DNA from: Candidatus Saccharimonadota bacterium
Lineage (GTDB): Bacteria > Patescibacteriota > Saccharimonadia > Saccharimonadales > SZUA-47
Direction: 5' to 3'
Assembly: GCA_016700315.1 (NCBI GenBank)
Contig: CP065013.1
Location: 65,449 to 129,448 of the forward strand
Length of the DNA: 64,000 bases
The notes under the pieces were generated by a model. It was not told the origin of the DNA. It did no database searches and saw only the letters and a list, made by a program, of their open reading frames with translations. Numbering within the stretch: position 1 is the stretch's first letter; each line of letters starts with the position of its first letter. The position numbers and the translations under genes are program-made. Shown here one piece after another: positions 39,764 to 64,000 of this stretch.

Positions 39764-41266
39764 TTAAAGTACCAGTTTTTCTAAGCGAGCTTTTATAGAG
39801 CCTTCGTGACGGCCAAACTGCTGGCTCAATTGCCGGAATGTTTTGCCTTTTGAGTTTAGTTTGAGCAGTTTTTGGTCATCTTGCCCTGTCCATGGAGTAT
39901 AGGCATTCGGATACTCAAGTCTCATCTTGGCAAGTTTTTCTGCCCAAGTTCCGCCTGATTTAGTCTTTTTGAGCTTCTTTTGAGCACATGCTTTTTCCCA
40001 TGCGCTCTCTAGGGTTTTATACAAAGCGTCATTTTGGAGAGATGATTTTCGTAATTGTTTATCGATTTCCTGCGCACGCTCATTCATTGTTAGGGCCGTC
40101 CTGTTAAGCCCACCAAGACTCAAACTATCCAGCGACCTAACACGACTGATCGCTACGTAACCCATGCCCGGGACAAAGGCCTTTGATAGATCAATGTGCG
40201 CAGAGTCCAGGGTCATACCCTGGCTTTTGTGAATGGTGATCGCCCAGGCTAAGCGCAGCGGGATCTGACTAATGCTAGCTATCTTTTTTTCACCGTCTCT
40301 TAGTTCCCATGTTTCGTAGTCGGCAACTACTTGCTTACTGTTTTTGATTCTGACTATTGGCAATCCCGAATCTTCTTCAAAACCGACCACCTCGCCAAGC
40401 GTACCATTAACATATTTTTGCTCTTGGCTGTTTTTGACGAACATCACAAATGCACCCTCTTTAAGTTTCAAAACTTCTGGCGCTAGGCAACTTTTTTTGA
40501 GCGTAGCTACGCCCGTTTTGCGCCCACTTGAGTTCATAAAAAACTCATGTTCTTCACCCTCCACTGCGCCGAGCTTAGCGTTATTTATTACATCTACATT
40601 TATATTGTGAGTGTAGAGTTCTGTTGTCCCCTCCGGTAATTCAGTGCTTAAACGTCTATTCATTAGCGCCTCAACATGACGACGACGTAAATCATTCTCA
40701 CGAAAGGCCGTCAGAATTTCACTAAGCATGTCGTCGTTCTGACGATGCTGTTCCTCCAGATAACAAACTATTGGATCAAGCTCTTGCCATGAAAAACTAT
40801 CAAAAATAAAATCACCCTGCCTACTACCATCTCGGTTAATAGGTGGTAATTGGAAAAAGTCACCGCTCAGCACAACCTGCAAACCACCAAACGGTGAATC
40901 GTTTTCTCGAACCAATCTACAAACCTTTTCCACCATATCTAGCCTAAAATCATGAAGCATAGAAACTTCGTCGATGATCAAAATGTCGGAGGTTTGGATT
41001 TGTGCCTTTCGGCTCTTACTCATCGATTCGATCTGCCCTTTATTAAGTTCATCAGCGATACCAATACCCGCCCAGGAGTGTATCGTGTTTCCTCCAAGAT
41101 GAGTTGCAGCAAGGCCTGTGCTCGCGGTAACGGCTACTTTCTTTCCATTGGCCCTCGCCCACTTAACAAACTCGTTAAGAACGTACGTTTTTCCGCTACC
41201 TGCGGGCCCAGTCAAAAAAACAGAATTACCTTCACTCAAAATCCCCAGAGCCATAGCTTGCTTCAT
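39764..41266 (-). CDS. Pif1/RecD-like ATP-dependent DNA helicase with a C-terminal HTH-like tail
   Basis: 500 aa. It has Walker A LTGPAGSGKTY and the motifs ILIIDEVSML, VLSGDFFQLPP and ITIHKSQG. Confidence 0.8.
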   Translation of the reverse strand: MKQAMALGILSEGNSVFLTGPAGSGKTYVLNEFVKWARANGKKVAVTASTGLAATHLGGNTIHSWAGIGIADELNKGQIESMSKSRKAQIQTSDILIIDEVSMLHDFRLDMVEKVCRLVRENDSPFGGLQVVLSGDFFQLPPINRDGSRQGDFIFDSFSWQELDPIVCYLEEQHRQNDDMLSEILTAFRENDLRRRHVEALMNRRLSTELPEGTTELYTHNINVDVINNAKLGAVEGEEHEFFMNSSGRKTGVATLKKSCLAPEVLKLKEGAFVMFVKNSQEQKYVNGTLGEVVGFEEDSGLPIVRIKNSKQVVADYETWELRDGEKKIASISQIPLRLAWAITIHKSQGMTLDSAHIDLSKAFVPGMGYVAISRVRSLDSLSLGGLNRTALTMNERAQEIDKQLRKSSLQNDALYKTLESAWEKACAQKKLKKTKSGGTWAEKLAKMRLEYPNAYTPWTGQDDQKLLKLNSKGKTFRQLSQQFGRHEGSIKARLEKLVL

Positions 41267-41378: not shown

Positions 41379-41762
41379 CTAGATACTGGAGGTGTGTGAT
41401 TTAAACCAAGCAGCTATTTCGGGAATATCCGCTTTCGAGAAGGCTATATGAACCGCAAAATCTTCTAGTTCTTTAGGCATAGCATTTAACAGATGGCCAT
41501 TCTGCATCATAAACAAAGCAGCACAAGTGATACCTGTTCTTTTGTTCCCATCAACAAAAAGATGATCAGAAATAACGATACGCGCGTAAACCGCAGCTTT
41601 TTCGAAAACTCCATTGTACTGCTCTTGCCCGAAAACGCTTTGTTGTGGTGCAGCTATAACCGAAAACAGACTTCTCTCATCACGAACACCATGACTTCCG
41701 CCATAGTCTTCAATTAGCTGAAAATGTATCAACAGAATATCTTCTGTACTAAGATACTTCAC
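41379..41762 (-). CDS. doc: Doc (death-on-curing) toxin, Fic superfamily
   Basis: 127 aa. The Doc motif reads HLFVDGNKRTG. Confidence 0.8.
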   Translation of the reverse strand: MKYLSTEDILLIHFQLIEDYGGSHGVRDERSLFSVIAAPQQSVFGQEQYNGVFEKAAVYARIVISDHLFVDGNKRTGITCAALFMMQNGHLLNAMPKELEDFAVHIAFSKADIPEIAAWFKSHTSSI

Positions 41763-51510: not shown

Positions 51511-53280
51511 TCAATACTCTTTGTGCAACTTTTGGCGGTTCCAAAGCTTGGCGTAAAGCCCGTTTTTCGTAAGCAAAGCTTCATGACTGCCTTCTTCTAT
51601 AATCCTACCTTTGTCAACCACTATGATGCGGTCCATGTGAGAAAGTGTACTCAAACGGTGGGCCACTACAATGGCTGTTTTACCCTTAAATATTTCAACA
51701 AATGAGTCCTTTATAATCTGCTCACTCTCACTATCGAGCGCGCTGGTGGCTTCGTCAAAAACGACAATTGGTGTATTTTGTAGTACAGCGCGCGCGATCG
51801 CTACACGCTGCTTCTGGCCGCCGCTAAGTTTTACTCCTCTCTCGCCAACTACACTTTGATAACCCAGTGGTAGCACGTCTATGAACTCTGCGGCGTGCGC
51901 AGCTTTAGCAGCCTTTTTGACTTTATCCACCGAGGCATCAGGCTGACCGATCAAGATATTGTTGAGAATTGTATCGTGAAAAAGTAGCGGTTCTTGAGCC
52001 ACGTAAGCAACTTGCGAGCGTAGATCTTTTTGGAGCAAACTCCGAACATCAAAGCCATCAATCAAAACACTGCCTTCTTGCACATCTTCAAAGCGCATGA
52101 GTAGCTTTGTTAGTGTACTTTTGCCAGCACCACTTATACCAACAACACCCAACTTTTCTCCACGCTTTATTTTGAGATTGAATTTATCAAAAACCTTCGC
52201 AGCACCAGGCTCATAGGCAAAAGTCACATCAGAGAAGTCAATATCTCCTTTTATCCGCCCTACTGTTGCCGGTTCCGCCGGGTCGGTAACTGTGCTTTTA
52301 TAAGAGTATACCTCAAGCGCTGGCAAAATTTTGTCTACATAATCATCATGTTCTTCTACTTTGTCCGACAATTCATAAATAGCTGTCATAATCGACAAGC
52401 TGTAAGCCGCCATCAACACAGCTTCGGCCACACCGATCGCCCCACTTTTCATTCGTGAAACGGTGAGAAGAAATGTCAACAGAAAGAACACAACCGTTAT
52501 ACCTTCACGTATTAGAGCTAGTTTGGCCTGCTTGATATAACGAGTTGTAAATAGTTTAGTTTCACGCTGCAACTTGACTTTCAAATCTTCCGACTTGGAG
52601 TCTTCCTGCGCTGTTGAACGTACCGCCAAGATATTAGAAATAGTGTCTGAAATGAAGCCAGAGCCTAGCCTGTATTGTTCACGTGACTCGCTACGTAGAC
52701 TAGATAAGGCATTAGAAGCCCAAAACAAGTAGACTATCTGAACGCCAGCAAGGATAGCGGTCGCCAAACCCAGTGGAATATCATAGTAAGCTATAACCCC
52801 CACCGGCATGACGATAGCCATGACGGCGTTGATATATTTATCTCGCAAACTCCTCTCAAGATTCAAGGTATTATCAGAAAATTGCCTGACAGAAGTCGTA
52901 AGGTAGCCTGCCATGTTGTCGTTAAAAAACTTCATGTCAGTCGACAGCAGTTTGGCGAAGTAGTCCTTTACGGCAGATGCATATATTCGGTTTTCGTCTC
53001 TCAGTGACAAAAACTTGGTTGCAGGGTTAAGAAGCCCAAGCAGTGCAGAAAAGATTGCATACATAAAGCTAAACTTAACTGCGGCCGCAAAATCATACCG
53101 CGACAAGTGATAGACAATGCGACTAACCATAATTGGGAGCATTATCAGTTTACAAACCCTACTCAACATCAAAGTCAGATACGAAGCACGGACTTTCCAA
53201 CTCTGACCATAAGTAGACCACAGCAAGCCGTAAACAAGCCGATAATCAGCTAGTGCTTTCTTTTTTCCCATTGAATTCAT
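51511..53280 (-). CDS. ABC exporter, fused permease/ATPase (MsbA-like type I exporter)
   Basis: 589 aa with a six-TM N-terminal half. It has Walker A GISGAGKST, signature LSGGQKQR and Walker B VVFDEATS. Confidence 0.85.
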   Translation of the reverse strand: MNSMGKKKALADYRLVYGLLWSTYGQSWKVRASYLTLMLSRVCKLIMLPIMVSRIVYHLSRYDFAAAVKFSFMYAIFSALLGLLNPATKFLSLRDENRIYASAVKDYFAKLLSTDMKFFNDNMAGYLTTSVRQFSDNTLNLERSLRDKYINAVMAIVMPVGVIAYYDIPLGLATAILAGVQIVYLFWASNALSSLRSESREQYRLGSGFISDTISNILAVRSTAQEDSKSEDLKVKLQRETKLFTTRYIKQAKLALIREGITVVFFLLTFLLTVSRMKSGAIGVAEAVLMAAYSLSIMTAIYELSDKVEEHDDYVDKILPALEVYSYKSTVTDPAEPATVGRIKGDIDFSDVTFAYEPGAAKVFDKFNLKIKRGEKLGVVGISGAGKSTLTKLLMRFEDVQEGSVLIDGFDVRSLLQKDLRSQVAYVAQEPLLFHDTILNNILIGQPDASVDKVKKAAKAAHAAEFIDVLPLGYQSVVGERGVKLSGGQKQRVAIARAVLQNTPIVVFDEATSALDSESEQIIKDSFVEIFKGKTAIVVAHRLSTLSHMDRIIVVDKGRIIEEGSHEALLTKNGLYAKLWNRQKLHKEY

Positions 53281-53355
53281 TATACTAAGATGACTGCATA
53301 AAAACTAACTCCTTGACTAAGAAGTTAGGCTCATGTATAGTTATTGTTAAGTTTT

Positions 53356-53694
53356 ATGAAAAAAGATATCCACCCGACCAATTATCAGTTTGTTGTTTTC
53401 GAAGATTTGAACGACGGCACGCGCTTTTTGACACGCGCATGTGTTGCCAGTGAGGAAACAACTAAATGGGAAGATGGCAACACCTACCCATTAGTTAAAG
53501 TGCACATTTCAAGCTCTTCTCACCCATTCTTCACTGGTCAAGAGAAGCTAATCGACATCGAAGGCCGCGTTGACAAGTTTGAAGCTCGCCGCAAAGCCGC
53601 CGAAGAAGCCCGCAAAGCCGCTGCCGCTCGTGTCAGCAAGGCAGATAAAAAAGCTGCGAAAGCCGAAAAAGACGAATCCAAGAAAATAGGTTAG
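53356..53694 (+). CDS. rpmE: 50S ribosomal protein L31 (type B, no CxxC) with a Lys/Ala-rich C-terminal extension
   Basis: First ATG at 53356. [21 protein letters not shown]...HPFFTG matches the L31 pattern. Confidence 0.85.
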
Positions 53695-53717
53695 AGGTTA
53701 TAGGTTAGAGGTTATAG
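53689..53717. repeat. heptamer tract ggttaga ggttata ggttaga ggttata overlapping the rpmE stop
   Basis: Read directly from the sequence. An inverted, imperfect copy lies inside prfA at 54318-54348. Confidence 0.85.
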
Positions 53718-53721
53718 ATAA

Positions 53722-54075
53722 ATGCCTATAACTTCTTACGAGCAACTTACCGTATGGCAAAAGTCTTTCGAACTAGTGAGACAAGTGTATGTTTTGACAG
53801 AAAAGCTGCCTAAACACGAGCAGTTTGGGTTATCTAACCAGATTCGACGTTGTGCAGTTTCGATACCAAGTAATATAGCTGAAGGACAACAAAGACATAG
53901 CCGAAAAGAGTATCTGCAGTTTCTGGCAATAGCAAGAGGCTCGGCTGCAGAACTGGATACCCAACTACTACTTATTGAGAGTATCTACGGTTTAGATTGC
54001 GAAAAAGAACTAAGCTTACTAGACGAAGTACAAAGAATGCTTACTGTATTAACAAATAAACTTAGCGCTTTATAA
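53722..54075 (+). CDS. four-helix-bundle protein (23S rRNA intervening-sequence protein / Avd-like family)
   Basis: 117 aa. [70 protein letters not shown] is the family signature. Confidence 0.8.
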
Positions 54076-54082
54076 TATACTT

Positions 54083-55135
54083 ATGGATAAACACGGCAAA
54101 CTAAAAGAAGAACTATCGCAAATCGACTTACAATTAAGCGATAGCTCTATATACTCGTCGCCTAAATACCCTGCACTCGCTAGAAGAAAAAGTGAAATAG
54201 AGAAGCTAAATGAGCTTTTTGAGCAACAAGCGAAACTATCTAGAGATCTCAAAGAAGCTGAAGTATTAGCAAATGGTACTGATGAACTTGCCGAACTAGC
54301 TAAGGAAGAAGTTAAATCTATAACCTCTAACCTCTCCACTATAACCTCGAGTCTGGAGGAGGCTTTGCTTCCCAAAGACCCGAATGATAACAAAGACTGC
54401 ATTATTGAAATTCGGGCTGGCGCTGGTGGTGACGAGTCAAGCCTTTTCGGAGCTGAGCTATACAAAATGTATGCACGCTACGCCGAGACTCACTCCCTCA
54501 AAATCGAGCTTTTAAGCGAAAGCCCAAGTGAAGTCGGCGGTTTCAAAGAAATAATCTTTGCCGTCCGCGGCGACAGCGCATATGGCCTGCTCAAATATGA
54601 GGCCGGCGTGCACCGTGTACAACGCGTCCCTGCTACAGAAAGTCAGGGCCGGATTCATACCTCGACTGTCACTGTTGCCGTACTGCCTGAAGCCGAAGAA
54701 ACAGACATCGAAATCAGCCCGAACGACCTGCGCATAGATGTCTACCGCAGTAGTGGTAATGGCGGCCAAAGCGTCAACACTACCGACTCGGCGGTACGTA
54801 TTACTCATTTACCAAGTGGAGTGGTTGTAACCTGCCAAGATGAAAAGTCCCAGATCAAAAACAAGCTAAAAGCTATGGGCGTGCTCCGCTCGCGCCTACT
54901 TCAGGCCAAAATTGACGCTGAAAACGCTAAGCTCAGCGCTGAACGGAAAGCGCTCATTGGCTCTGGCGATCGTAGCGAAAAAATCCGCACCTACAACTTC
55001 CCTCAAGACCGCATTACTGACCACCGAATTGGCTACTCGCGCTCTAACATCCCAGCAGCACTTGCTGGGCAGATCGAAGACCTCTTTGAAGAGCTCAAAA
55101 AAGCCGAACTCTCCTTGCTAAAAACCGAAGTTTAA
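54083..55135 (+). CDS. prfA: peptide chain release factor 1
   Basis: 350 aa with the PAT tripeptide ([17 protein letters not shown]) and the GGQ motif ([22 protein letters not shown]). Confidence 0.9.
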
Positions 55136-55242
55136 ACGTTTTAGAACTTGTCTCATGTGTTACTTATACGATGTAACATCGTAGTTTTTGCGAATATTTA
55201 CAACATAGCAACTGAGATTAGATACCTAGTCAGTAAGACAGC

Positions 55243-55269
55243 AAAAAAAAGCACCTATCATAAAGGTGC
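55243..55269 (-). terminator. Rho-independent terminator (minus strand)
   Basis: On the minus strand the stem is gcacct / ttatgat / aggtgc, followed by tttttttt (+ strand A-run at 55243-55250). Confidence 0.6.
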
Positions 55270-55358
55270 CTCCAAAAAATCACCTGTACTTAAACAAATG
55301 TTTATTAGATTGTACTACTTAGCCAGTACTACCAGTTTGCGTTTCTGTACGGTCCCAT
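55243..55358 (-). ncRNA. candidate small RNA in the prfA-prmC spacer
   Basis: Minus-strand promoter-like TTGAAT (55392-55387), a 16-nt spacer, then TATCAT (55370-65). About 115 nt further on is the terminator above. The only ORF inside is 8 codons. Confidence 0.3.
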
Positions 55359-55443
55359 GCATTTATGATATCAACCTAGCTGATATATTCAAAATTGTAT
55401 ACCATTTTTAGTTAGTTTGGCCGTTGTTGAGTACAATACTTCT

Positions 55444-56292
55444 ATGACTATTAAAAGATGGATTTTAGATAGTACTCTATTATTAAGCCCCTACTCCGCT
55501 ACCGCAAGATTAGACTGCGAGGTATTGCTAGCGCACGTTTTAGACAAAGATAGAGTTTGGCTGCTGGCTCACCCAGAGCACGTTCTTCAAGGACAGTCCC
55601 TGAAAAGAGTAGATCGGTATTTGCAGCGCCGTAAATCTCAGGAACCGATCGCTTACATAATCGGCCACAGTGAATTTTATGGGCGTGAGTTTGAGGTTTC
55701 GGCTGATACTCTGCAGCCGCGCCCGGAAACAGAGACCATGGTTGAGCTTCTTCTCGACACAATAAACAGTAAACAGTTGTCGGTAAACAGTATTGTTGAT
55801 GTTGGCACTGGATCTGGCGCAATTATTATCTCTGCATTCCTAGAGCTCTCTATCAACCATAAACTATCAACTATCAACTTCCATGCTACCGACATCAGCC
55901 CAGCTGCTTTAGAAATCGCCCGTCAAAACGCTAAGAGGTACGATGCTGATATCAAATTCTATCAAGGAGATTTACTAGGTCCCCTACTATCTACTATCTA
56001 CCATCTACCATCTGCCATAATTCTGGCTAATCTGCCCTATGTGCCAGACAGCCACACAATCAATCAAGCCGCCATGCACGAACCAAAACACGCTATTTTC
56101 GGCGGCACTGATGGCCTCGATTTGTATAGAACTATGTTCGACCAACTATCAACTATCAACTATCAACTATCAACTATCCTGTTTACAGAATCTTTACCTC
56201 CGCAGCATAAAGAATTAGCTCGGATTGCCGAACAAGCTGGCTTCAAGCAAATTGCCGAACAAGACTTTATCCAAGTTTTCGAAAAAAAGTAA
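55444..56292 (+). CDS. prmC: release-factor glutamine methyltransferase PrmC-like, with heptamer-encoded segments and NLPY in place of NPPY
   Basis: EPIAYIIGHSEFYGREFEV, LQPRPETE and motif I VDVGTGSGAI are present. Motif IV reads ANLPYV. I start at the ATG at 55444; the track starts at a TTG, 55417. Confidence 0.7.
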   Translation: MTIKRWILDSTLLLSPYSATARLDCEVLLAHVLDKDRVWLLAHPEHVLQGQSLKRVDRYLQRRKSQEPIAYIIGHSEFYGREFEVSADTLQPRPETETMVELLLDTINSKQLSVNSIVDVGTGSGAIIISAFLELSINHKLSTINFHATDISPAALEIARQNAKRYDADIKFYQGDLLGPLLSTIYHLPSAIILANLPYVPDSHTINQAAMHEPKHAIFGGTDGLDLYRTMFDQLSTINYQLSTILFTESLPPQHKELARIAEQAGFKQIAEQDFIQVFEKK

Positions 56293-56316
56293 TACTTTTT
56301 GTGTATAATTGCAATA

Positions 56317-56919
56317 ATGAATGTCGGGATTAGTAAAACTCAACGTACTGAGCTGGACACGATGTCTAGCCCAGAAGTATTAGGCAGATATTTTGAAAGT
56401 CTTCAGCAAGTAGCACGGCAAGGAGAAGCCATACGCGAAGAGGTAACAGACGGAGAAATCGAAGGAGCGTACACAGCTGGGTGGTCTTTAGGCAATCTAC
56501 GCTTTATTGAGGGCAAAGACCCTATCGAATCGGCCGATTTAGACCCAGTTACTATAACTAATGCCAAGTTTTTCAGAGCTCAGACTAGACTAGAAAGTTA
56601 TATTAACAACCGTTTTTTGGGCAGTATGGTGCAAGTAATACCACTCGATCAAGAAATTGTAGCAGCAAGAGCACCCTGGGGGACACTGTCTGTTGTGCCA
56701 CACTTTCTGAGGGGTGGTGAGACGAGACTTAATCATGCAAGATTACTAGCATTTGGGACTTCATCAAATGGCCGAACGGTGTTGTCTGTTGTAACAAGAC
56801 GAGGCTTACCTTCTATTACCCACTATATGAACATCGTTGGACCTGACGGTCCCAAAATCAGCATTAGTGTTAGAGATGACAAAAAACGCATGTCAGCAAA
56901 ATCTATATCCAGACTTTAG
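56317..56919 (+). CDS. hypothetical protein
   Basis: First ATG at 56317, with TATAAT at 56304-56309 just upstream. No recognised domain. Confidence 0.45.
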   Translation: MNVGISKTQRTELDTMSSPEVLGRYFESLQQVARQGEAIREEVTDGEIEGAYTAGWSLGNLRFIEGKDPIESADLDPVTITNAKFFRAQTRLESYINNRFLGSMVQVIPLDQEIVAARAPWGTLSVVPHFLRGGETRLNHARLLAFGTSSNGRTVLSVVTRRGLPSITHYMNIVGPDGPKISISVRDDKKRMSAKSISRL

Positions 56920-57010
56920 TATGTAACTTACTGAAACTTAGCCCCCTTCTTCGAACTCCTGAGGAGTTGAGTGCCAAATAGACAATCAGAATGATGGGAG
57001 TGTTTTAATA

Positions 57011-57035
57011 CCCCACGAAATATCATTTCGTGGGG
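57011..57035. terminator. 11-bp stem hairpin in a convergent intergenic region
   Basis: ccccacgaaat / atc / atttcgtgggg. It lies between the 3' ends of 56317..56919 (+) and htrA (-). There is no strong U-tract. Confidence 0.45.
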
Positions 57036-57237
57036 GCCACTATTAAAGCTTAATCAAGAAAAATATTATTGTGTATTTTTCTTGTCAAGCAAGTTGCCCG
57101 AATATTGTCTTATTTGACTACGAAAGCATCAAGAGTTTGAAGCGGGGGTCGTTTCTTTCGTCTATTTCTTTGCGACAAAAGAAATGGACTCGACAAAGCC
57201 AGGCGAAGCCGGGTGGCGAAACAAGGTGAAAAAGTGA

Positions 57238-58410
57238 CTAATTGCTTGGGGCGGCTTCGAGAGTAACAGTAATAGTTTGCTCTTTGCCGTCTCGTAAAAT
57301 TGTCAGATCAACTTTGTCGCCGACTGATTTACTGCCCAAAATACTCACCAGACTCCTCTTGGGAGTAATTGCTTCACCTGCAATTTTGGTGATGATGTCT
57401 TTTTCTTGAAGGCCTGCTTTTTCTGCGGGGCTGCCCGACACAATCGAGGCTGAGTTTCGGCTCGGAATAATGTAAGCACCCTCCTGAACGGGTAAATTAT
57501 ATGTGTAGGCCAGATCTGCGGTGATCGAAGCGTAGCGCACACCAAGATACGGCCGCTCAAGCTTACCCTTATCGAGAACTGTTTTAATCAACGGCTGAAT
57601 ATCATCAATCGGAATTGCGAACCCTATATTCTCTGCCCCGCCGCCGGCAACAGCGGTATTGATCCCAATAACTTCACCTTTTAGATTAACCAAAGGCCCG
57701 CCAGAGTTGCCCTGATTGATAGATGCATCTGTCTGAAAAAGATTTAGTAAGGTTTCGGTCTGTGCGCTGCCACTGCTATCGCCAGCCTGGATAGAGCGTC
57801 CAAAACCCGAAATAATGCCGCTAGTAACCGTGTTCTGAAATTGGCCGAGAGCGTTACCGATTGCTACCACACGGTCGCCAACTTTTACATCGGCTGATTT
57901 GCCTAGAGCCGCCGGCTTCAGCTCTTTACCTTTGGCATCTTTGATCTTCAGAAACGCTACGTCCAGAGGATCGGTTGCATTGGTTCTGCCCAAGACTTCA
58001 ACCTGATCTAGTTCGGTTCCATCTGACAAAGTAATGCTGACCTTATCGTTAGCATTAGGTACCACATGACGGTTAGTGATGACCACACCTTCTTTGGTTA
58101 GGATAAGGCCGGTGCCCGCACTCTCCTGCTCAAAACTCTGAGTTCCAAAAAAGACACTGTTTTGAGTAGCGGTACCAGTCACATTGATAGAGACGACGCT
58201 ATCACCCATATTTTTACTAATCTGACTGATAAGGTCGCCTTCGCTATTGATGACTTCTCGTTGCACCTGGGTGTTGCTTGCCTGCTGGACTTTAGTGTTA
58301 TTAGCTAACAGTCCGCCGCCAAAACCAGCCAGTACAGCTAGCGCTAGCATTCCGAATCGTGATATTTCTAATGTTTTTTTTGATGAAGATAAGCTCTGCT
58401 CTGGTTTCAT
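57238..58410 (-). CDS. htrA: HtrA/DegP family serine protease with PDZ domain
   Basis: 390 aa with an N-terminal TM anchor, the catalytic GNSGGPLVN and a C-terminal PDZ domain (GSPAEKAGLQEKDIITKI). Confidence 0.85.
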   Translation of the reverse strand: MKPEQSLSSSKKTLEISRFGMLALAVLAGFGGGLLANNTKVQQASNTQVQREVINSEGDLISQISKNMGDSVVSINVTGTATQNSVFFGTQSFEQESAGTGLILTKEGVVITNRHVVPNANDKVSITLSDGTELDQVEVLGRTNATDPLDVAFLKIKDAKGKELKPAALGKSADVKVGDRVVAIGNALGQFQNTVTSGIISGFGRSIQAGDSSGSAQTETLLNLFQTDASINQGNSGGPLVNLKGEVIGINTAVAGGGAENIGFAIPIDDIQPLIKTVLDKGKLERPYLGVRYASITADLAYTYNLPVQEGAYIIPSRNSASIVSGSPAEKAGLQEKDIITKIAGEAITPKRSLVSILGSKSVGDKVDLTILRDGKEQTITVTLEAAPSN

Positions 58411-58446
58411 TATTGCCTTTCTGCTTTTTTACCCATATTTTTAGCT

Positions 58447-59199
58447 TCAAAGTACTATGTTGTCGGAGCGACCTGAAAACATAATTATTACAAAAGCCAA
58501 TGCGCATATTGTAATCACAACTTGCCTTAAAACATGCTTAGAAAGTGCTGACTTGTGATCCAGATAGTATAGTGTGGCCGTACCATAGCCCATCACTGAG
58601 ATTAGTAAGACTGGCTGAGCGATGGTGCCAAAATAAATCAGCCAATGTGTCGACAACCAGACAATCGCAGCCGTCACGTAACCCCAAGTATATGCAATCA
58701 TTCGCGACATGTTCTCGTCAAACGAGCTCAAAAAATGCCTAGCTGCAAGAACGCAAATTAGAGCAGTAGCCGCAACCAAAAACAGCACACTGTGTTCACC
58801 CCAAATATGAAAAACTGTATAAAGTGAAATGGTTTGGCCGATCAGTGCCTGCATTGATACCCAGACCAGACTAGAGCGCGGTTTAATAACTACTAACCAT
58901 ATGACGTAGAGCGCCGCCAGTAACAAATGGGACAACATGGAGTTGGTTGATGACATCAAAAGTACTACCGATAGCCCAACAGAGATATCTATTGAGTTAC
59001 TTCTAAGGTGCGCTGGCCAATAGCGTGCTCGAACTGCAAATATTCGCCACTTGCTTAATAAGATAACTGCTACCGAGAGCTCGGTAAAGCCGACACGAGC
59101 CAAAATATATAGTATTGCTGGTAGCAAAATCAATCCAACGCTATGAACTAGACGTCCAAAACCCCTTTGAGGTTTAATTAGCCTGCCGATTTGCTTCAT
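58447..59199 (-). CDS. hypothetical polytopic membrane protein
   Basis: 250 aa with about 7 hydrophobic helices. Its start overlaps the 3' end of the LCP gene by 26 nt. Confidence 0.5.
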   Translation of the reverse strand: MKQIGRLIKPQRGFGRLVHSVGLILLPAILYILARVGFTELSVAVILLSKWRIFAVRARYWPAHLRSNSIDISVGLSVVLLMSSTNSMLSHLLLAALYVIWLVVIKPRSSLVWVSMQALIGQTISLYTVFHIWGEHSVLFLVAATALICVLAARHFLSSFDENMSRMIAYTWGYVTAAIVWLSTHWLIYFGTIAQPVLLISVMGYGTATLYYLDHKSALSKHVLRQVVITICALAFVIIMFSGRSDNIVL

Positions 59200-60796
59200 T
59201 CTTACCGATTATTATAACAAAATCTGCATCCAGAGGGTTAATGTTTGGATCAGTCAGGTCTGTCCGACCCACTACCTGCATACGTCTTTCCAAGTAGCTT
59301 AGAGTATACTTCATAGCGCCGTTTGTACGGTCGATGACAAAGTTATTGACATAATCCTGGGTTGGCGCATTGCCAACACTAAGCACATTGTAGCCGTAAG
59401 ATTTTAATTCTGTAGCCGTTTTACTCGCCAAGCCGACTGTTGTCGTACCATTTAAAATGAGTATTTTAGCGTTTTCATTCTTTAGGTATGCATCTTTGAG
59501 AGCATTGTTTCGGACATAACTTTGAATTTGACTGTAATCAAAGGTCCCGGCTTTAGGATAGACAACGGATTGGTCGCCTACTATGCCCGTTGTTAGCAGG
59601 ACGTTTGGTTCGTCAACTAAACTGACTGATGCGATCTTGTCTGAGCTAATCTGTTTAGCAATTTCATACATCCGGCCTATCTCGTCAGTACCTATATCGG
59701 TACGCACATTACCGCTGAATGTTGCCAGCAATTGTTGCAGCTTATAAGGGTTTGAGTAGGTCCCGCTGCTTAATATTTTATCTTTTAGGGCGATTAGAAT
59801 CTCGCGCTGACGCTCCGAACGACCAAAATCAGAGCGAGCATCGCAATGGCGACAACGAGCATATCCAAGCGCACGCAAACCGTTAAACTGTTGCTGCCCG
59901 GTACCGACGTTCAGAAAATAAGGTTTGCCGTTTAGTAGCATCTGTTCGCTGACAGCCTGCTTAACGTCAATTGTTATGCCGCCAACGGTGTCTATAGCTT
60001 TTTGGAAAGCAGTAAAATCTACCATAACATGGTAATGAATCGGCACTCCAAGTACCGCTTCGACACGATTAGAAATAGCCTCAGTTCCGGCTTGCTCGGC
60101 TGCCTCTTTATCTTTAGGATTATTATTTAGTGCCCGTTCTTTAGCGAAGGCGTATACTGCATTAATTTTGGTCGCGGAACCGTTGTCTTTAACCCAAAGA
60201 TCGCGAGGAAGACTCAAAATAGCTGCTTCATTCTGGACAGGGTCAATACTGGCCAACAGAATCGTGTCTGTCAGATCGGGGCCATCCTCTTGCGTCGGCC
60301 CTCCTTTGCCTAGAATCAAAACATTTACGCGGCCATCGCCCTCGCCCTTAAGCCTTGCAGGGTCGGGATTTTTCTGAAGGGCTACAGCACCTTCTGCATT
60401 ACCACGAAAAACATTTTTCACTTTGAAATAAACATAGCCTAAGCCGCCACCTGCTAGAAGTATTAATACCAAAAAACTGACCATTGCCCGCTTTAAAGTA
60501 AATCGCCGTTTTCTTTTGACCAGTTGTTCTTTTTTGTTGCGACGAAAAAGCCGCTTTTTAGGACGCGGCTCTTTAAAATTTTCTAGCGGAATGTTTTCAT
60601 CGAAGCTGGAGGCATTTTGCTTCTGATTATTGGTTAAAAAGCCCTCCGTACGATCAAACGAAGGATCAGAACTAGAACGATCCTTAAGGTAGCTGCGATT
60701 AAAACGCTTCGTCGGCTGACGATTTGCAGAACTAAAGCCGTCAATTGACCCAGAAGCTACGCGACCAGGCCGTTTTTTTGGTCTGAAATTATCCAT
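59174..60796 (-). CDS. LytR-CpsA-Psr (LCP) family cell-wall glycopolymer transferase with a LytR_C-like C-terminus
   Basis: 540 aa with a basic disordered N-terminus and one TM helix. The LCP core reads VNVLILGKGG...TDTILLASIDP...SLPRDLWV. Confidence 0.8.
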   Translation of the reverse strand: MDNFRPKKRPGRVASGSIDGFSSANRQPTKRFNRSYLKDRSSSDPSFDRTEGFLTNNQKQNASSFDENIPLENFKEPRPKKRLFRRNKKEQLVKRKRRFTLKRAMVSFLVLILLAGGGLGYVYFKVKNVFRGNAEGAVALQKNPDPARLKGEGDGRVNVLILGKGGPTQEDGPDLTDTILLASIDPVQNEAAILSLPRDLWVKDNGSATKINAVYAFAKERALNNNPKDKEAAEQAGTEAISNRVEAVLGVPIHYHVMVDFTAFQKAIDTVGGITIDVKQAVSEQMLLNGKPYFLNVGTGQQQFNGLRALGYARCRHCDARSDFGRSERQREILIALKDKILSSGTYSNPYKLQQLLATFSGNVRTDIGTDEIGRMYEIAKQISSDKIASVSLVDEPNVLLTTGIVGDQSVVYPKAGTFDYSQIQSYVRNNALKDAYLKNENAKILILNGTTTVGLASKTATELKSYGYNVLSVGNAPTQDYVNNFVIDRTNGAMKYTLSYLERRMQVVGRTDLTDPNINPLDADFVIIIGKNEANRQAN

Positions 60797-60883
60797 TTAT
60801 GTAAGTAATATTATAGCTGTTTTAAGCTAACGAAACCAAATTATTTCCGTTTATCAGAGTCTTTGGAGTATAGTAATAAGTCA

Positions 60884-61543
60884 ATGGATCAGCAAAACAT
60901 ACACAGTACGCCACAGATGACACCAGTTGTTAATGGTCAAACGCAGCCACCTGCTAGTAACAAAACTAGCCGCGAGGGTAAGAAAAATATTATTTCGACG
61001 GTTCTGGCACTTGTACTGGCACCGCTCTTGGCCGTTTTCTTAACATCTTACGTTTTTCATTCCTATGAAGTTTTTGGCCCAAGCATGCAACCAACACTTG
61101 AACAAGGTGATCGATTAATAGTACTAAAAGCTCCCCGTACGTGGGCTAAGATTACCGGTAAGCAGTTTATGCCGAAGCGCGGCCAAATTGTAGTTTTTGA
61201 CAAACCCGACCTGCTTATTGGTGGAGAGCACGGTAAACAATTAATCAAGAGAGTGATTGGTTTGCCAGGCGATCGAGTTGTTGTCGCTGGTGGTAAGATT
61301 ACTGTTTATAACAACGATCACCCAGAGGGTTATGACGTAGATAAAGACACTGATTACGGAGATAAAATTCCAGAAACTGAAGGTAATGACGACCGTATAA
61401 TACCTGAGGGCGAAGTCTATGTAAGTGGAGATAATCGCCAAAACTCGCTAGATTCACGCTCGTTTGGTTCAATCAAAACCAGCTACATCGTTGGGACCGC
61501 CGAGTATCGCCTTTTTCCTTTCAGCAAGCACCGTAGCTTCTAG
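60884..61543 (+). CDS. lepB: signal peptidase I
   Basis: GPSMQPTLEQGDRLIV (catalytic Ser), KRVIGLPGD (Lys) and SGDNRQNSLDSR are present. First ATG at 60884; the track starts at a TTG, 60863. Confidence 0.85.
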   Translation: MDQQNIHSTPQMTPVVNGQTQPPASNKTSREGKKNIISTVLALVLAPLLAVFLTSYVFHSYEVFGPSMQPTLEQGDRLIVLKAPRTWAKITGKQFMPKRGQIVVFDKPDLLIGGEHGKQLIKRVIGLPGDRVVVAGGKITVYNNDHPEGYDVDKDTDYGDKIPETEGNDDRIIPEGEVYVSGDNRQNSLDSRSFGSIKTSYIVGTAEYRLFPFSKHRSF

Positions 61544-61607
61544 CAGCTATTATAATCATTTTTCTACGATGACTACTTTGATTGTACGGTTCTGCCTCTT
61601 GCAAGCC

Positions 61608-63374
61608 TTAACGAGACGCTAAAAATACCTTGTTTGAATCAAGTGACCTATTTAAGACTTCGGCTGAGGTGAGCCTAGCGAAGTTGGCATAGCCGCCGAT
61701 GTGAGCTAGGTTAGTTAGACCTTCGGCTGAGGTGAGCCTATCGAAGTAGGCATCGCCGCCGATGTGAGCTAGGTTAGTTAGACCTTCGGCTGAGGTGAGC
61801 CTATCGAAGTAGGCATCGCCGCCGATGTGAGCTAGGTTAGTTAGACCTTCGGCTGAGGTGAGCCTAGCGAAGTTGGCATAGCCGCCGATGTGAGCTAGGT
61901 TAGTTAGACCTTCGGCTGAGGTGAGCCTAGCGAAGTTGGCATAGCCGCCGATATGAGCTAGGTTAGTTAGACCTTCGGCTGAGGTGAGCCTATCGAAGTT
62001 GGCATAGCTGCCGATGTGAGCTAGGTTTGTTAGACCTTCGGCTGAGGTGAGCCTATCGAAGTAGGCATCGCCGCCGATGTGAGCTAGGTTAGTTAGACCT
62101 TCGGCTGAGGTGAGCCTATCGAAGTTGGCATCGCCGCCGATGTGAGCTAGGTTAGTTAGACCTTCGGCTGAGTTGAGCCTAGCGAAGTTGGCATAGCCGT
62201 TTATCGTTCTAACTCCTTCAAGTATTAGAGCAAGAAGCTCGTTACTATTACCAAAGTAATTAACATCTACATTTGAATTATTGATTATGTCTGCTAAATT
62301 ACTTGGCCGACTAGATAGATCGTATTCGTCACTGAAACTAAGGCTGCCAAACAATACGTCTGACGCATCGAGATTTGCTAGCTTTTCCAGTTCGACCAGC
62401 TGACCCTGCCGCGTGAGTAACGTGTTTTCTGGTAGTTTAATATCCAGCACTTTAGGAGGCTTTTCATCTCTCGCAAGCTTGCTCATTAGTACCCCCAGAC
62501 CAGCAAAAACCTCCTCCCAATTTTGGCCACCAACAACCACAGCTTTATTGTCGCTAGTCTTGATCTGCTTTATGCTGTGGCTTGCAACGACATATTCGAT
62601 AGAATAGTGCTGACTAGAAGCATCAGCCTGATTTACTCGTATCGAGAAGAACCTTGCTTTGCCAACTTCAAGAGCTTTAGAGTAGGAGGTAGACGTACCG
62701 ATACAGTGACCGGTTACAACCGACTCTTGGGCTAAATGTTCTTTAGTAGTAAGCTCTACAAGACTGAATGAGTCACTTTCGTGGATTAAGCTAGGTTCGG
62801 CACCTTCGGCGTTGGCGGCATTGCGCCTAGCTTCGGCAATCCTTTGCTCGGTTACCGCATTGTGGCGTGCTATAAGCTTGCCTATGCCACCGTTATTTTT
62901 GGCTGCTTTCGGAGCAGTGGCTGGGGCGATGCAACCTAAAGTTTCAGAACTCAGCTCAGTCAAAGGAACTTTGAACCACTCAACTACGCTTGCTCGTTTT
63001 TTGGCGATGCTCTTGCTGGTGGCAGCAGGATTGCTTACATAGGCTAGTAGCCCTTCGATTATGGAGTCGGCTATAGTTGAAGAATCGGCTACATCCTCAT
63101 TTGCCTGACTACCGTCAAGGACTGATTCGATAAAGTACTGCGCAATTTTATGAGCTAGCAGCCTTCTACGCTCACCTTTTGTTTCTCCGTTATTATCTGA
63201 GCCTAGGAACTCACCAACATATGTCATATTGCGCTGCGCAGTGTACTCTACGAGTTGGTCGCGCTCAGCCAGTGTCCCAACTACTTCATCTGTAAGTTTT
63301 TCAACCGAACCTAGGAATGCTAACTGCTCAGGGGTCAAAGCTTCGATTGATGGCAATATGGATGTCATGGTCAT
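61608..63374 (-). CDS. PcfJ-like domain protein fused to a C-terminal array of 21-aa leucine-rich repeats
   Basis: 588 aa. The central segment LAQESVVTGHCIGTSTSYSKALEVGKARFFSIRV...HYSIEYVV..IKQIKTSDNKAV fits my memory of the PcfJ-like motif. The C-terminus has 8 full LTSAEGLTNLAHIGGxAxFxR units. Confidence 0.6.
   Translation of the reverse strand: MTMTSILPSIEALTPEQLAFLGSVEKLTDEVVGTLAERDQLVEYTAQRNMTYVGEFLGSDNNGETKGERRRLLAHKIAQYFIESVLDGSQANEDVADSSTIADSIIEGLLAYVSNPAATSKSIAKKRASVVEWFKVPLTELSSETLGCIAPATAPKAAKNNGGIGKLIARHNAVTEQRIAEARRNAANAEGAEPSLIHESDSFSLVELTTKEHLAQESVVTGHCIGTSTSYSKALEVGKARFFSIRVNQADASSQHYSIEYVVASHSIKQIKTSDNKAVVVGGQNWEEVFAGLGVLMSKLARDEKPPKVLDIKLPENTLLTRQGQLVELEKLANLDASDVLFGSLSFSDEYDLSSRPSNLADIINNSNVDVNYFGNSNELLALILEGVRTINGYANFARLNSAEGLTNLAHIGGDANFDRLTSAEGLTNLAHIGGDAYFDRLTSAEGLTNLAHIGSYANFDRLTSAEGLTNLAHIGGYANFARLTSAEGLTNLAHIGGYANFARLTSAEGLTNLAHIGGDAYFDRLTSAEGLTNLAHIGGDAYFDRLTSAEGLTNLAHIGGYANFARLTSAEVLNRSLDSNKVFLASR
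61659..62205 (-). repeat. about 8.7 x 63-nt near-identical tandem repeat (coding LRR units)
   Basis: The unit start ttcggctgagg recurs at 61659, 61722, 61785, 61848, 61911, 61974, 62037, 62100 and 62163, an exact 63-nt spacing. Confidence 0.9.
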
Positions 63375-63401
63375 TGCTTAATCACTGGCTCCGAAGTAAA
63401 A

Positions 63402-63863
63402 TTAGTACACTCCCAGTCGAGGGTTAGCTCCGGGCGAGTCCTTGCAGCTCGATAAGATCAGAGTTGCTGTGTGGTATCGTAGATCATCTGTAAGTGGCTG
63501 CAAGAATACTAGTGATGACACAGCCATTCCAGCCCCTACCGATATGCATGCTGACGACACTACCTTTCGCTGGTGATCAATAATTTCACCAAGGTTCCCT
63601 TCGTAGTTCGGAAAAAAATGTACAGCGTCATTATCTACAAAAGCTCTTGGAGTATGGGGTGGGTGCTGCACACTATTGCCATGCATTCTCTCAAAAATAC
63701 TTGGCTCGAGTGAGCCTAAAAACGGAAGTTCTACGATTTCACAAGGGTTACCTAAAACCAGCCCAAAAAGACGCCCTGCAATCTCAGCCTCATTACTACT
63801 TGGACCATAAAGCTTAGAAATCTCAACTCTGTCCAGAGTCTGGTTTGGAATAATAGCAAACAT
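63402..63863 (-). CDS. hypothetical protein
   Basis: 153-aa ORF ending 27 nt upstream of the PcfJ-like/LRR gene start, so probably co-transcribed with it. No recognised domain. Confidence 0.45.
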   Translation of the reverse strand: MFAIIPNQTLDRVEISKLYGPSSNEAEIAGRLFGLVLGNPCEIVELPFLGSLEPSIFERMHGNSVQHPPHTPRAFVDNDAVHFFPNYEGNLGEIIDHQRKVVSSACISVGAGMAVSSLVFLQPLTDDLRYHTATLILSSCKDSPGANPRLGVY

Positions 63864-63920
63864 ATATAATATTATACTTCATTATAGGTAAAATGTAAAT
63901 TAAATTATCCTGATAGAACG

Positions 63921-64000
63921 CTACCGTAGGAGCATCCTTTTGAGCTTGGCTAGTTCGGCATCATTTTTGTATGCAATGGCTACTATCCCACCGCGTTTTT
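63921..64000 (-). CDS. 3' end of an unidentified gene entering from the right edge
   Basis: Open minus-strand frame from the window edge: ...KRGGIVAIAYKNDAELAKLKRMLLR, then TAG at 63921-63923. Too short to identify. Confidence 0.25.
   Translation of the reverse strand, partial: KRGGIVAIAYKNDAELAKLKRMLLR

Follow-up and report, generated by a model that had tools for sequence, protein, structure and literature searches.

A gene on the minus strand of a 64,000-nucleotide stretch of DNA from a Candidatus Saccharimonadota bacterium (contig CP065013.1, positions 65,449 to 129,448; this whole stretch is called the window below) encodes a 588-amino-acid protein that joins a divergent PcfJ-like domain to a C-terminal array of near-identical 21-residue repeats. 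Among strains, the array changes both in the number of its units and in their sequence, and every amino acid change in the pooled units falls in one of six codons. The explanation that we prefer, and to which we give slightly better than an even chance, is that the protein is an effector, either non-exported or delivered by contact, whose repeats form a hypervariable target-recognition solenoid that is diversified by repeat recombination and selection. An earlier note on this DNA, made from the letters alone, had described near-identical units whose variation is limited to a few codons, and this description holds for the window and for the strain alleles alike.

Anatomy of the gene and its repeat array

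The window product matches QQS65065.1 in sequence, save that the start codon of the window open reading frame (ORF) lies two residues earlier. The record bears the name 'PcfJ domain-containing protein [Candidatus Saccharibacteria bacterium]'. The gene and its parts, from the N-terminus to the C-terminus of the protein, are as follows.

61608..63374, minus strand: main gene, PcfJ-like/repeat protein (ORF call, 588 aa)
62895..63374, minus strand: N-terminal helical region, aa 1-160 (low-confidence model)
62460..62882, minus strand: PcfJ-like core, aa ~165-305 (Pfam, alignment and model)
62241..62459, minus strand: alpha/beta linker and degenerate first solenoid turns, aa 306-378 (model)
62178..62240, minus strand: partial unit preceding the array, aa 379-399 (ELLALILEGVRTINGYANFAR), with repeat sequence already in its last 24 nt
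61674..62177, minus strand: eight full 63-nt / 21-aa units, aa 400-567, L[T/N]SAEGLTNLAHIG[G/S][D/Y]A[N/Y]F[D/A]R (Tandem Repeats Finder and translation)
61608..61673, minus strand: degenerate terminal unit, aa 568-588 (LTSAEVLNRSLDSNKVFLASR), and stop codon (translation)

One array is detected by Tandem Repeats Finder, at 61658..62199 (period 63, 8.6 copies, 96% matches, 0% indels, score 979), and it contains all eight copies of a 35-nucleotide unit core that the window has, where none is expected (100 shuffles). Together with the translation, this result bears out the eight full 21-residue units in a 63-nucleotide period that had been read from the sequence. The span given for them at that time, 61659-62163, does fall within the array, but its register differs from that of the units themselves. 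The partial unit that precedes the array ends in the seven residues GYANFAR (aa 393-399).

The eight units of the window follow one another in the order DND, DYD, S-YND, YNA, YNA, DYD, DYD, YNA, such that the combinations DANFD, DAYFD, YANFD and YANFA, as well as a single G to S change, are all present as had been claimed. At the DNA level these units differ at three recurrent single-nucleotide sites (GAT/TAT in codon 16, AAC/TAC in codon 18 and GAT/GCT in codon 20), to which are added two singleton nonsynonymous changes (ACC>AAC in codon 2 and GGC>AGC in codon 15) and two singleton synonymous changes (ACT>ACA and CAC>CAT). The array (61600..62199) is also the most GC-rich 600-nucleotide segment of the region 52000-64000 (53% versus approximately 43%), and its GC skew on the plus strand is strongly positive (+0.21). 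Composition gives no clear signal of horizontal transfer, and the GC-richness is confined to the array.

Position-specific variation between strains

We compared eight DNA alleles, namely that of the window and seven others that were recovered, and two further alleles at the protein level. Scans of genome_contigs, metagenome_contigs (by protein and by DNA pattern) and viral_contigs for additional alleles found nothing. Proteins in the 90% cluster are 462, 504, 546 and 586 aa long and that of the window is 588 aa, corresponding to 2, 4, 6 or 8 full units. The N-terminal 399 residues are approximately 99% identical among alleles, and the N-terminal 1134 nucleotides hold 11 segregating sites. Both unit sequence and unit number thus vary among the strain alleles as assembled, a kind of variation that the earlier note had proposed to look for.

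When the units of all DNA alleles are pooled (n = 34, with 15 distinct DNA sequences), 16 of the 63 nucleotide sites are variable, and the two kinds of change occupy separate sets of codons. Nonsynonymous changes, which number 11-19 depending on the counting method, all lie in codons 2, 15, 16, 18, 20 and 21. Synonymous changes (5-6) all lie in codons 6, 8, 10, 12 and 14, with none at the variable codons. The states observed at the variable codons in the pooled units are the following.

Codon 2: ACC / AAC / GCC
Codon 15: GGC / AGC
Codon 16: GAT / TAT / GGT
Codon 18: AAC / TAC / AGC
Codon 20: GCT / GAT / ACT
Codon 21: AGG / AAG / AGC

In the minimum spanning tree that joins the unit types, the six variable codons account for every one of the 19 nonsynonymous steps, and the 6 synonymous steps are confined to the backbone. 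The diversifying selection that had been proposed from the window alone is thus supported by a nonsynonymous excess, the strength of which depends on how changes are counted: with the pooled synonymous rate as reference, the variable codons have an omega of 3.9 by tree counts (p=0.0015) and of 2.7 by minimal counts (p=0.046). The backbone codons show the opposite pattern, with 0 nonsynonymous versus 5-6 synonymous changes (p<=0.002). Furthermore, units that can be anchored by their flanks differ at 11 of 252 nucleotides between two lineages, compared to 5 of 1134 nucleotides in the N-terminal part of the gene (Fisher p=1e-5), which is an approximately 10-fold higher divergence.

Mosaic alleles and copy number

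A second lineage carries two alternating unit types with linked synonymous markers, and the true repeat in that lineage is 126 nucleotides. Units of type a carry CTC and GGC with N/S18 and S/R21, and those of type b carry CTA and GGT with Y18 and K21. Three alleles can be written as ordered series of units, with L001 = ABCDEF, L005 = ABEF and L006 = ADEF, and their differences are blocks of two units (126 nucleotides). The pairing of a and b fits both these block differences and the exclusively even numbers of units. To judge from their sequences, then, the alleles look like mosaics related by two-unit block indels, and together with the linked a/b markers this agrees with the cassette shuffling that the earlier note had put forward. 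At a finer scale, 7-8 of the 9 possible residue combinations are seen between variable sites that lie 6-15 nucleotides apart, implying short-tract conversion or recurrent mutation.

A divergent PcfJ-like domain

The PcfJ-like family is named for PcfJ of the Enterococcus faecalis plasmid pCF10 and occurs in many large phages. Its Pfam model (PF14284) has a gathering cutoff of 25 bits, and the window protein scores 18.6 bits at full length (E=0.0018) and 19.5 bits when only aa 1-399 are used, covering profile positions 29-136 of 147. The PcfJ-like assignment made earlier therefore does not stand on the direct Pfam score, but it is supported by homology to relatives, by a conserved motif and by the predicted fold. 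An exhaustive phmmer search of aa 1-399 against 1.84 billion cluster representatives yielded 49 matches at E<=1e-3, all centred on aa ~150-300, with E-values from 5.5e-25 to 7e-7 for the relatives P0025, P0029, P0031 and P0040 (individual relatives are called by such numbers below). PF14284 is matched by 25 of 26 aligned relatives (best 5.7e-13), and each of the nine full-length relatives tested exceeds the cutoff, with scores of 26-116 bits.

The motif that the earlier note had linked to PcfJ-like proteins is indeed present, as GHC..Y..G..FSIR..IEY..IKQIK..N at aa 222-277, and it coincides with residues that are conserved throughout the family. Invariant across the family alignment are L214, E217, C224, G226, S244 and R246, and near-invariant (>=90%) are H223, Y231, G238 and Q270. 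The invariant Glu, (His-)Cys, Ser and Arg, together with the near-invariant Tyr and Gln, suggest a putative enzyme. An AlphaFold model of aa 160-399 has a predicted local distance difference test (pLDDT) score of 90.3 and gives 20 matches at E<=1e-3 among the phage protein models of BFVD (best E=6e-6, probability 1.00), of which about half are named PcfJ-like protein and several others are unnamed. Because homology to members that pass the cutoff, the conserved motif and the fold-level match all agree, we assign the protein, as a divergent member, to the PcfJ-like family even though it falls short of the formal hidden Markov model cutoff.

Other searches with this domain were negative. The PcfJ core matched nothing by tblastn among 50,697 phage and 72,556 plasmid records, and a sequence search of the PDB with the family profile gave no significant match. 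A literature search for functional studies of the PcfJ family returned none, most matches concerning C. elegans pCFJ plasmids.

The repeats are predicted to form a solenoid

The full-length AlphaFold2 model has a mean pLDDT of 81.5, with values above 95 in the repeats, and the same three short strands recur in each unit (positions 3, 12-13 and 17-18). The C-terminal part is accordingly modelled as a regular solenoid with one turn per 21 residues. Hydrophobic residues are conserved in the unit at L1, A4, L7, L10, I13, A17 and F19. In the third strand, the variable positions 16, 18 and 20 alternate with A17 and F19, and positions 21 and 2 flank L1. Because of this alternation in a solenoid modelled with high confidence, the variable residues would face outward and line up along one side, with A17 and F19 buried. 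The surface exposure that had been expected of the variable sites is therefore likely.

The assignment of the units to BspA-type leucine-rich repeats (LRRs) fared less well. Even a threshold as loose as E<=10 yields no Pfam LRR family for the window repeats, and the repeats of relative P0038 give two matches that are both sub-threshold (24.7 bits for LRR_EndoS, and 18.5 bits for LRR_5 versus a cutoff of 27.7). The top PDB match of the full model, Listeria InlJ, is not significant (E=0.068, TM 0.16); InlJ is an LRR protein with repeats of 21 residues, as in the window array. What the window repeats have in common with BspA-type and EndoS-type LRRs (LRR_5, PF13306; LRR_EndoS, PF23952) is the signature ..L..IGG.A.F.. 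of short solenoid repeats. Compared to LRRs, the window unit has 21 rather than approximately 23 residues, and an SAEG turn takes the place of the usual concave strand. We therefore use 'BspA-type LRR' only as the nearest named kind and not as a family assignment.

Distant relatives share the architecture

C-terminal repeats of 19-21 residues are found in approximately 17 of the 49 distant relatives, with the signature L..L..(I/V)GG.Φ.Φ (where Φ is hydrophobic) and often with an equally strong or stronger super-period of 38-42 residues; the C-termini of other relatives are unrelated to these repeats. Relatives that retain the architecture share only ~20-30% identity. The N-terminal helical region also has the motif L-T/S-x-E/A-Q-x-x-F-L in common with P0025 and P0029. 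Word-index searches for homologues, one of them with a 26-sequence profile, did not reach beyond the cluster of the species itself, and a sequence search of the PDB with the repeat region of P0029 gave no significant match.

In most of the eleven relatives' arrays that we examined, variability is among the highest at the positions that follow the GG motif. Old arrays (P0025, P0029 and P0060) have units that have diverged throughout, and in recently homogenised arrays the variation is again essentially limited to the positions after the GG motif. For example, P0036 has near-identical 57-nucleotide units whose differences are solely nonsynonymous (TAC/GAC, GAC/TAC, GCC/ACC, AGA/AGC and TTC/TTA). 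Both P0036 and P0051 toggle between Asp and Tyr at the same structural positions as the window units, at two positions in the case of P0051.

Some of these relatives have features of their own. The P0036 locus (L010 1..7433), where the repeats are of 19 residues, includes an rve integrase, a Transposase_mut fragment, a BrnT/BrnA toxin-antitoxin pair and a weak RepL match; this gene content points to a plasmid-like or mobile context, unlike the chromosomal context of the window gene. P0028 (3332 aa) combines a eukaryotic-type topoisomerase I catalytic core (PF01028, E=3.7e-26) with three PcfJ-like domains (115.9 bits), a composition reminiscent of the 'polyvalent' multi-domain proteins that phages and conjugative elements encode. 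Strongly basic tails follow the repeats in P0029 (…RKRVEPKRKRRRRT) and P0026 (…LLAAKKVDLRKIK), and the window tail (…NRSLDSNKVFLASR) is mildly basic. Such strongly basic tails can serve as secretion or nucleic-acid-binding signals.

In some target genes of diversity-generating retroelements (DGRs) in bacteria of the candidate phyla radiation (CPR), a PcfJ-like motif lies upstream of the variable region (Wu et al. 2018, category g, PMC5758913). Considered alongside the repeat-array relatives, these targets suggest that a PcfJ-like constant domain has repeatedly been joined to a hypervariable C-terminus by different genetic routes.

Partner gene and genomic neighbourhood

Three further features of the locus bear on the main gene or its neighbours.

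63402..63863, minus strand: co-directional 153-aa gene (QQS65066.1, annotated hypothetical), 27 nt upstream of the main gene (ORF call)
63871..63899, minus strand: promoter-like TTTACA-17-TATAAT, 11/12 matches, directly upstream of the 153-aa gene (consensus match only)
58447..59199, minus strand: 250-aa hydrophobic ORF with no Pfam match and a 26-nt overlap with the 3' end of the LCP gene (ORF call)

The co-directional 153-aa ORF at a distance of 27 nucleotides is as first described, and because the promoter-like match lies directly upstream of it, the two genes may be transcribed together as a unit of their own. For the 153-aa protein, family searches gave no match, homologue searches found nothing beyond the species cluster, and a search of the PDB gave no solved relative. 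At the locus of P0025, whose product is 28% identical to the window protein, a gene for a 164-aa protein lies 3 nucleotides upstream (the stop ends at 1419 and the gene starts at 1423). The 164-aa protein shares with the partner the motif F.PN.EGNLG.I (pairwise E=7e-6, a weak similarity). Thus, with respect to homologues of the partner, for which the earlier note had suggested a search, the four distant loci examined yield a clear relative beside P0025 and none at the P0036 and P0060 loci; upstream of P0029 lies a truncated ORF that runs into the start of the gene. Residues 101-119 of the partner (VVSSACISVGAGMAVSSLV) are moderately hydrophobic (19-residue Kyte-Doolittle hydropathy of 1.81) and could be a membrane segment or a buried core, and the matching region of the 164-aa protein does not look hydrophobic.

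Contigs from other samples, where long enough to show it, conserve the same gene order, in which a 1249-aa protein, ParA, ParB and the 153-aa protein precede the main gene, and signal peptidase I (lepB) on the opposite strand, LCP, a membrane protein and an HtrA-like protease lie beyond it. Judging from these genes, the locus is a conserved part of the chromosomal core with no obvious mobile element or defence island. The 1249-aa protein upstream of parA-parB (L002 41..3790 and L003 41..3790, outside the window) has no Pfam match. The counterpart of the 250-aa hydrophobic ORF is 250 aa long in L003-L006 and 169 aa long in L001 and L002.

Amino-acid-biased change extends beyond the repeats. The N-terminal part of the main gene and the partner together show a ratio of nonsynonymous to synonymous changes of 6:1, compared to 0:9 for the LCP gene (Fisher p=0.0009), which lies at 59174..60796 on the minus strand and differs from the window allele by 4-9 synonymous and 0 nonsynonymous changes. 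Taken separately, the partner gene has 2 nonsynonymous and 0 synonymous changes, and the non-repeat part of the main gene (62241..63374) has 4 to 0-1. These changes in the partner and in the non-repeat part suggest that the whole two-gene unit is under relaxed or positive selection, and not the repeats alone.

Elsewhere in the window, a PIF1/RecD-like helicase (39764..41266, minus strand, 500 aa, Walker A GPAGSGKT) adjoins a Fic/Doc-like 127-aa ORF (41379..41762, minus strand), both judged by sequence, within a housekeeping stretch of GreA-like and of lysyl- and prolyl-tRNA-synthetase-like ORFs. Window ORFs of similar size to our two genes (589 aa; 153 + 504 aa) were considered as possible paralogues and were rejected, as by sequence they are ABC-transporter-like, GreA-like and lysyl-tRNA-synthetase-like and unrelated.

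A model for the protein and its alternatives

In the explanation that we prefer, the divergent PcfJ-like domain, probably enzymatic, would be the constant module of the protein, and the C-terminal solenoid of 21-residue LRR-like turns would be the variable one. The strand G-x-A-x-F-x-x and the following corner would form the variable face, which would present the residue sets D/Y/G, N/Y/S, D/A/T and R/S/K. This face presumably binds a fast-changing ligand, and would in this manner direct the PcfJ-like domain to a target, perhaps in conflict with the host bacterium, with phage or with mobile elements. Diversity would arise through three processes. First, single-nucleotide nonsynonymous changes would appear at five to six codons. 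Second, unequal recombination or gene conversion among the near-identical 63-nucleotide units, which in one lineage are organized as 126-nucleotide a/b pairs, would reshuffle unit types and shift copy number by twos. Third, selection would keep amino acid changes on the binding face and purge them elsewhere.

A bolder extension of this model, which we regard as a long shot, is that the array is a programmable module resembling that of transcription activator-like (TAL) effectors, wherein each 21-residue turn or 42-residue pair would read one element of a linear ligand through its variable residues and recombination would rewrite the specificity. A glycan, a peptide or a strand of nucleic acid could be such a ligand, belonging either to the bacterial host or to a phage. 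By this analogy, CPR bacteria would apply both DGRs and repeat shuffling to the same PcfJ-like effector, delivered into or used against another cell.

Several points weigh against the effector model. The sample consists of only eight DNA alleles and two protein-level alleles, and several of them come from low-coverage short-read assemblies in which a 63-nucleotide array may collapse or form chimeras, so that copy numbers are provisional. The nonsynonymous excess is marginal under minimal counts (p=0.046), the tree-based count is inflated by recombination, and the variable codons were defined after the data were seen. Furthermore, the window protein's own PcfJ score is below the Pfam cutoff, the exposure of the variable residues is deduced from secondary structure and residue alternation in a model, and the small upstream gene appears to be conserved in the nearest clade only.

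The alternative that survives best, which we nevertheless consider unlikely, is an intracellular immune sensor in which the solenoid recognizes a protein of an invader and the PcfJ-like domain executes the response. A probable enzyme domain joined to a hypervariable repeat sensor, the lack of export signals, the strain-level diversification and the ties of the PcfJ family to phage and plasmid biology are all in keeping with this idea. However, PADLOC returns no family at E<=1 for the main gene or its partner, searches of both genes against NCBIfam and PHROGs give no meaningful match, the protein has no NTPase switch domain, and the neighbours are parAB, lepB, LCP and HtrA genes rather than a defence island. 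The mobile or defence module that the earlier note had mentioned as a possibility likewise finds no PADLOC match and sits poorly with a conserved chromosomal core. Moreover, an immune sensor of this kind would be a special case of the effector model and not a true alternative to it.

It is also improbable, in our estimation, that the pattern is a neutral by-product of recent repeat expansion, with a backbone constrained by folding, exposed sites that drift and copy-number differences that are assembly artefacts. A conserved core with varying exposed positions is expected of any solenoid, the excess of nonsynonymous over synonymous change is marginal by minimal counts, and k-mer coverage for L002 and L003 is only 1.2-1.4, such that copy numbers and some junction units may be products of assembly. 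Drift does not readily explain why anchored units have diverged about ten times as much as the flanking coding sequence, or why the variable codons carry 0 synonymous and 11-19 nonsynonymous changes. In the independent lineages P0036 and P0051, variation returns to the same positions with the same D/Y toggling, and the architecture is kept across relatives at ~20-30% identity. Finally, unit types with the codons GGT, AGC, ACT and AAG are absent from the window genome, and assembly collapse cannot produce them.

A surface adhesin or host-attachment protein, whose variable face would bind structures on the host cell, had been suggested earlier and seems to us quite improbable. The proposal, made likewise for LRR proteins of oral Saccharibacteria, draws on the strain-level hypervariability of an LRR-like solenoid and on the enrichment of LRR proteins in some TM7 clades, for which a role in adherence has been proposed (bioRxiv 10.1101/2020.04.29.069278). 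It is at odds with the main protein itself, in which we find no signal peptide, transmembrane segment, lipobox or cell-wall anchor. Its N-terminus (MTMTSILPSIEALTPEQ) has no hydrophobic core, and its maximum 19-residue Kyte-Doolittle hydropathy is 1.03. In addition, the repeat region is acidic, the window allele lacks a recognisable export tail, and the family of the N-terminal domain is known from phages, plasmids and giant multi-domain proteins, not from surface proteins. Because export signals are lacking and the PcfJ family has phage and plasmid affinities, we favour an intracellular role or non-Sec delivery over a classical adhesin.

That the variable codons are written by mutagenic reverse transcription of a template repeat is hardly credible here, despite the occurrence of PcfJ-like motifs upstream of DGR variable regions in CPR genomes (PMC5758913) and despite variable codons of the NAY/NNY type (AAC, GAT, TAT) that is typical of such regions: the 64-kb window has no further copy of the unit core at <=3 mismatches that could be a template, the gene tables of syntenic loci list no reverse transcriptase within 6 kb on each side, at least ten adenines in each unit never vary, the variable element is a tandem array, rather than one variable region, and its alleles differ by block indels, and P0036 shows the same pattern with different codons.

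Significance and comparison with known systems

CPR bacteria, Saccharibacteria included, live attached to other bacteria as their hosts, and how they recognize or manipulate these partners is little understood. The locus described here is a compact candidate for a fast-evolving recognition protein, with a readout of five or six codons per 63-nucleotide unit. The repeated coupling of PcfJ-like domains to hypervariable targeting domains, by repeat arrays here and in the ~17 relatives and by DGRs according to the literature, offers a first functional hint for this domain. The recurrence of Asp/Tyr toggling at equivalent positions of unrelated arrays suggests that such binding faces follow common rules, and if the repeats prove to be modular they might serve as engineerable binding scaffolds. 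The PcfJ label of the protein is already known from its NCBI record. What appears to be new is the PcfJ-plus-repeat architecture as a family, the recurrent pattern of homogenisation and variation with Asp/Tyr toggling in independent lineages, and the parallel with DGR-diversified PcfJ-like proteins of CPR bacteria.

With the PcfJ-like family (PF14284), the window protein shares the core L..ES...(H)C.G....Y......G....FS.R......IEY......Q. Points of difference from that family are its fusion to a repeat solenoid and the location of its gene in the chromosomal core of Saccharibacteria rather than in a conjugative element or a phage. A working analogy for its overall design, and no more than that, is provided by the IpaH/SspH effectors, which combine LRRs with a NEL ubiquitin ligase: in both cases a target-recognition solenoid would be fused to an enzymatic domain. 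The window protein differs, however, in having its domains in the opposite order and an unrelated catalytic domain, and its gene has no linked secretion system.

Hypervariable LRR faces, or near-identical repeats with few variable residues, are known from plant resistance proteins, lamprey variable lymphocyte receptors and TAL effectors. The TAL effector repeats of Xanthomonas are near-identical alpha-helical units of 34 residues that differ only at their repeat-variable residues and that function in a type III secretion context. Likewise, the window units are near-identical in DNA and have few variable residues drawn from a small alphabet, and the alleles of the gene vary in copy number and have the form of recombinant mosaics. 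This likeness is a formal one, as the window array is a beta-rich 21-residue solenoid without a type III secretion context.

The DGR targets of CPR bacteria (PMC5758913) resemble the window protein in composition, in that they pair a PcfJ-like constant part with a hypervariable C-terminus in the same broad bacterial group. They depend on a template and a reverse transcriptase, which were not found in the window and in the syntenic neighbourhoods examined, respectively, whereas the window protein appears to reach a comparable result through point change and recombination in a tandem array.

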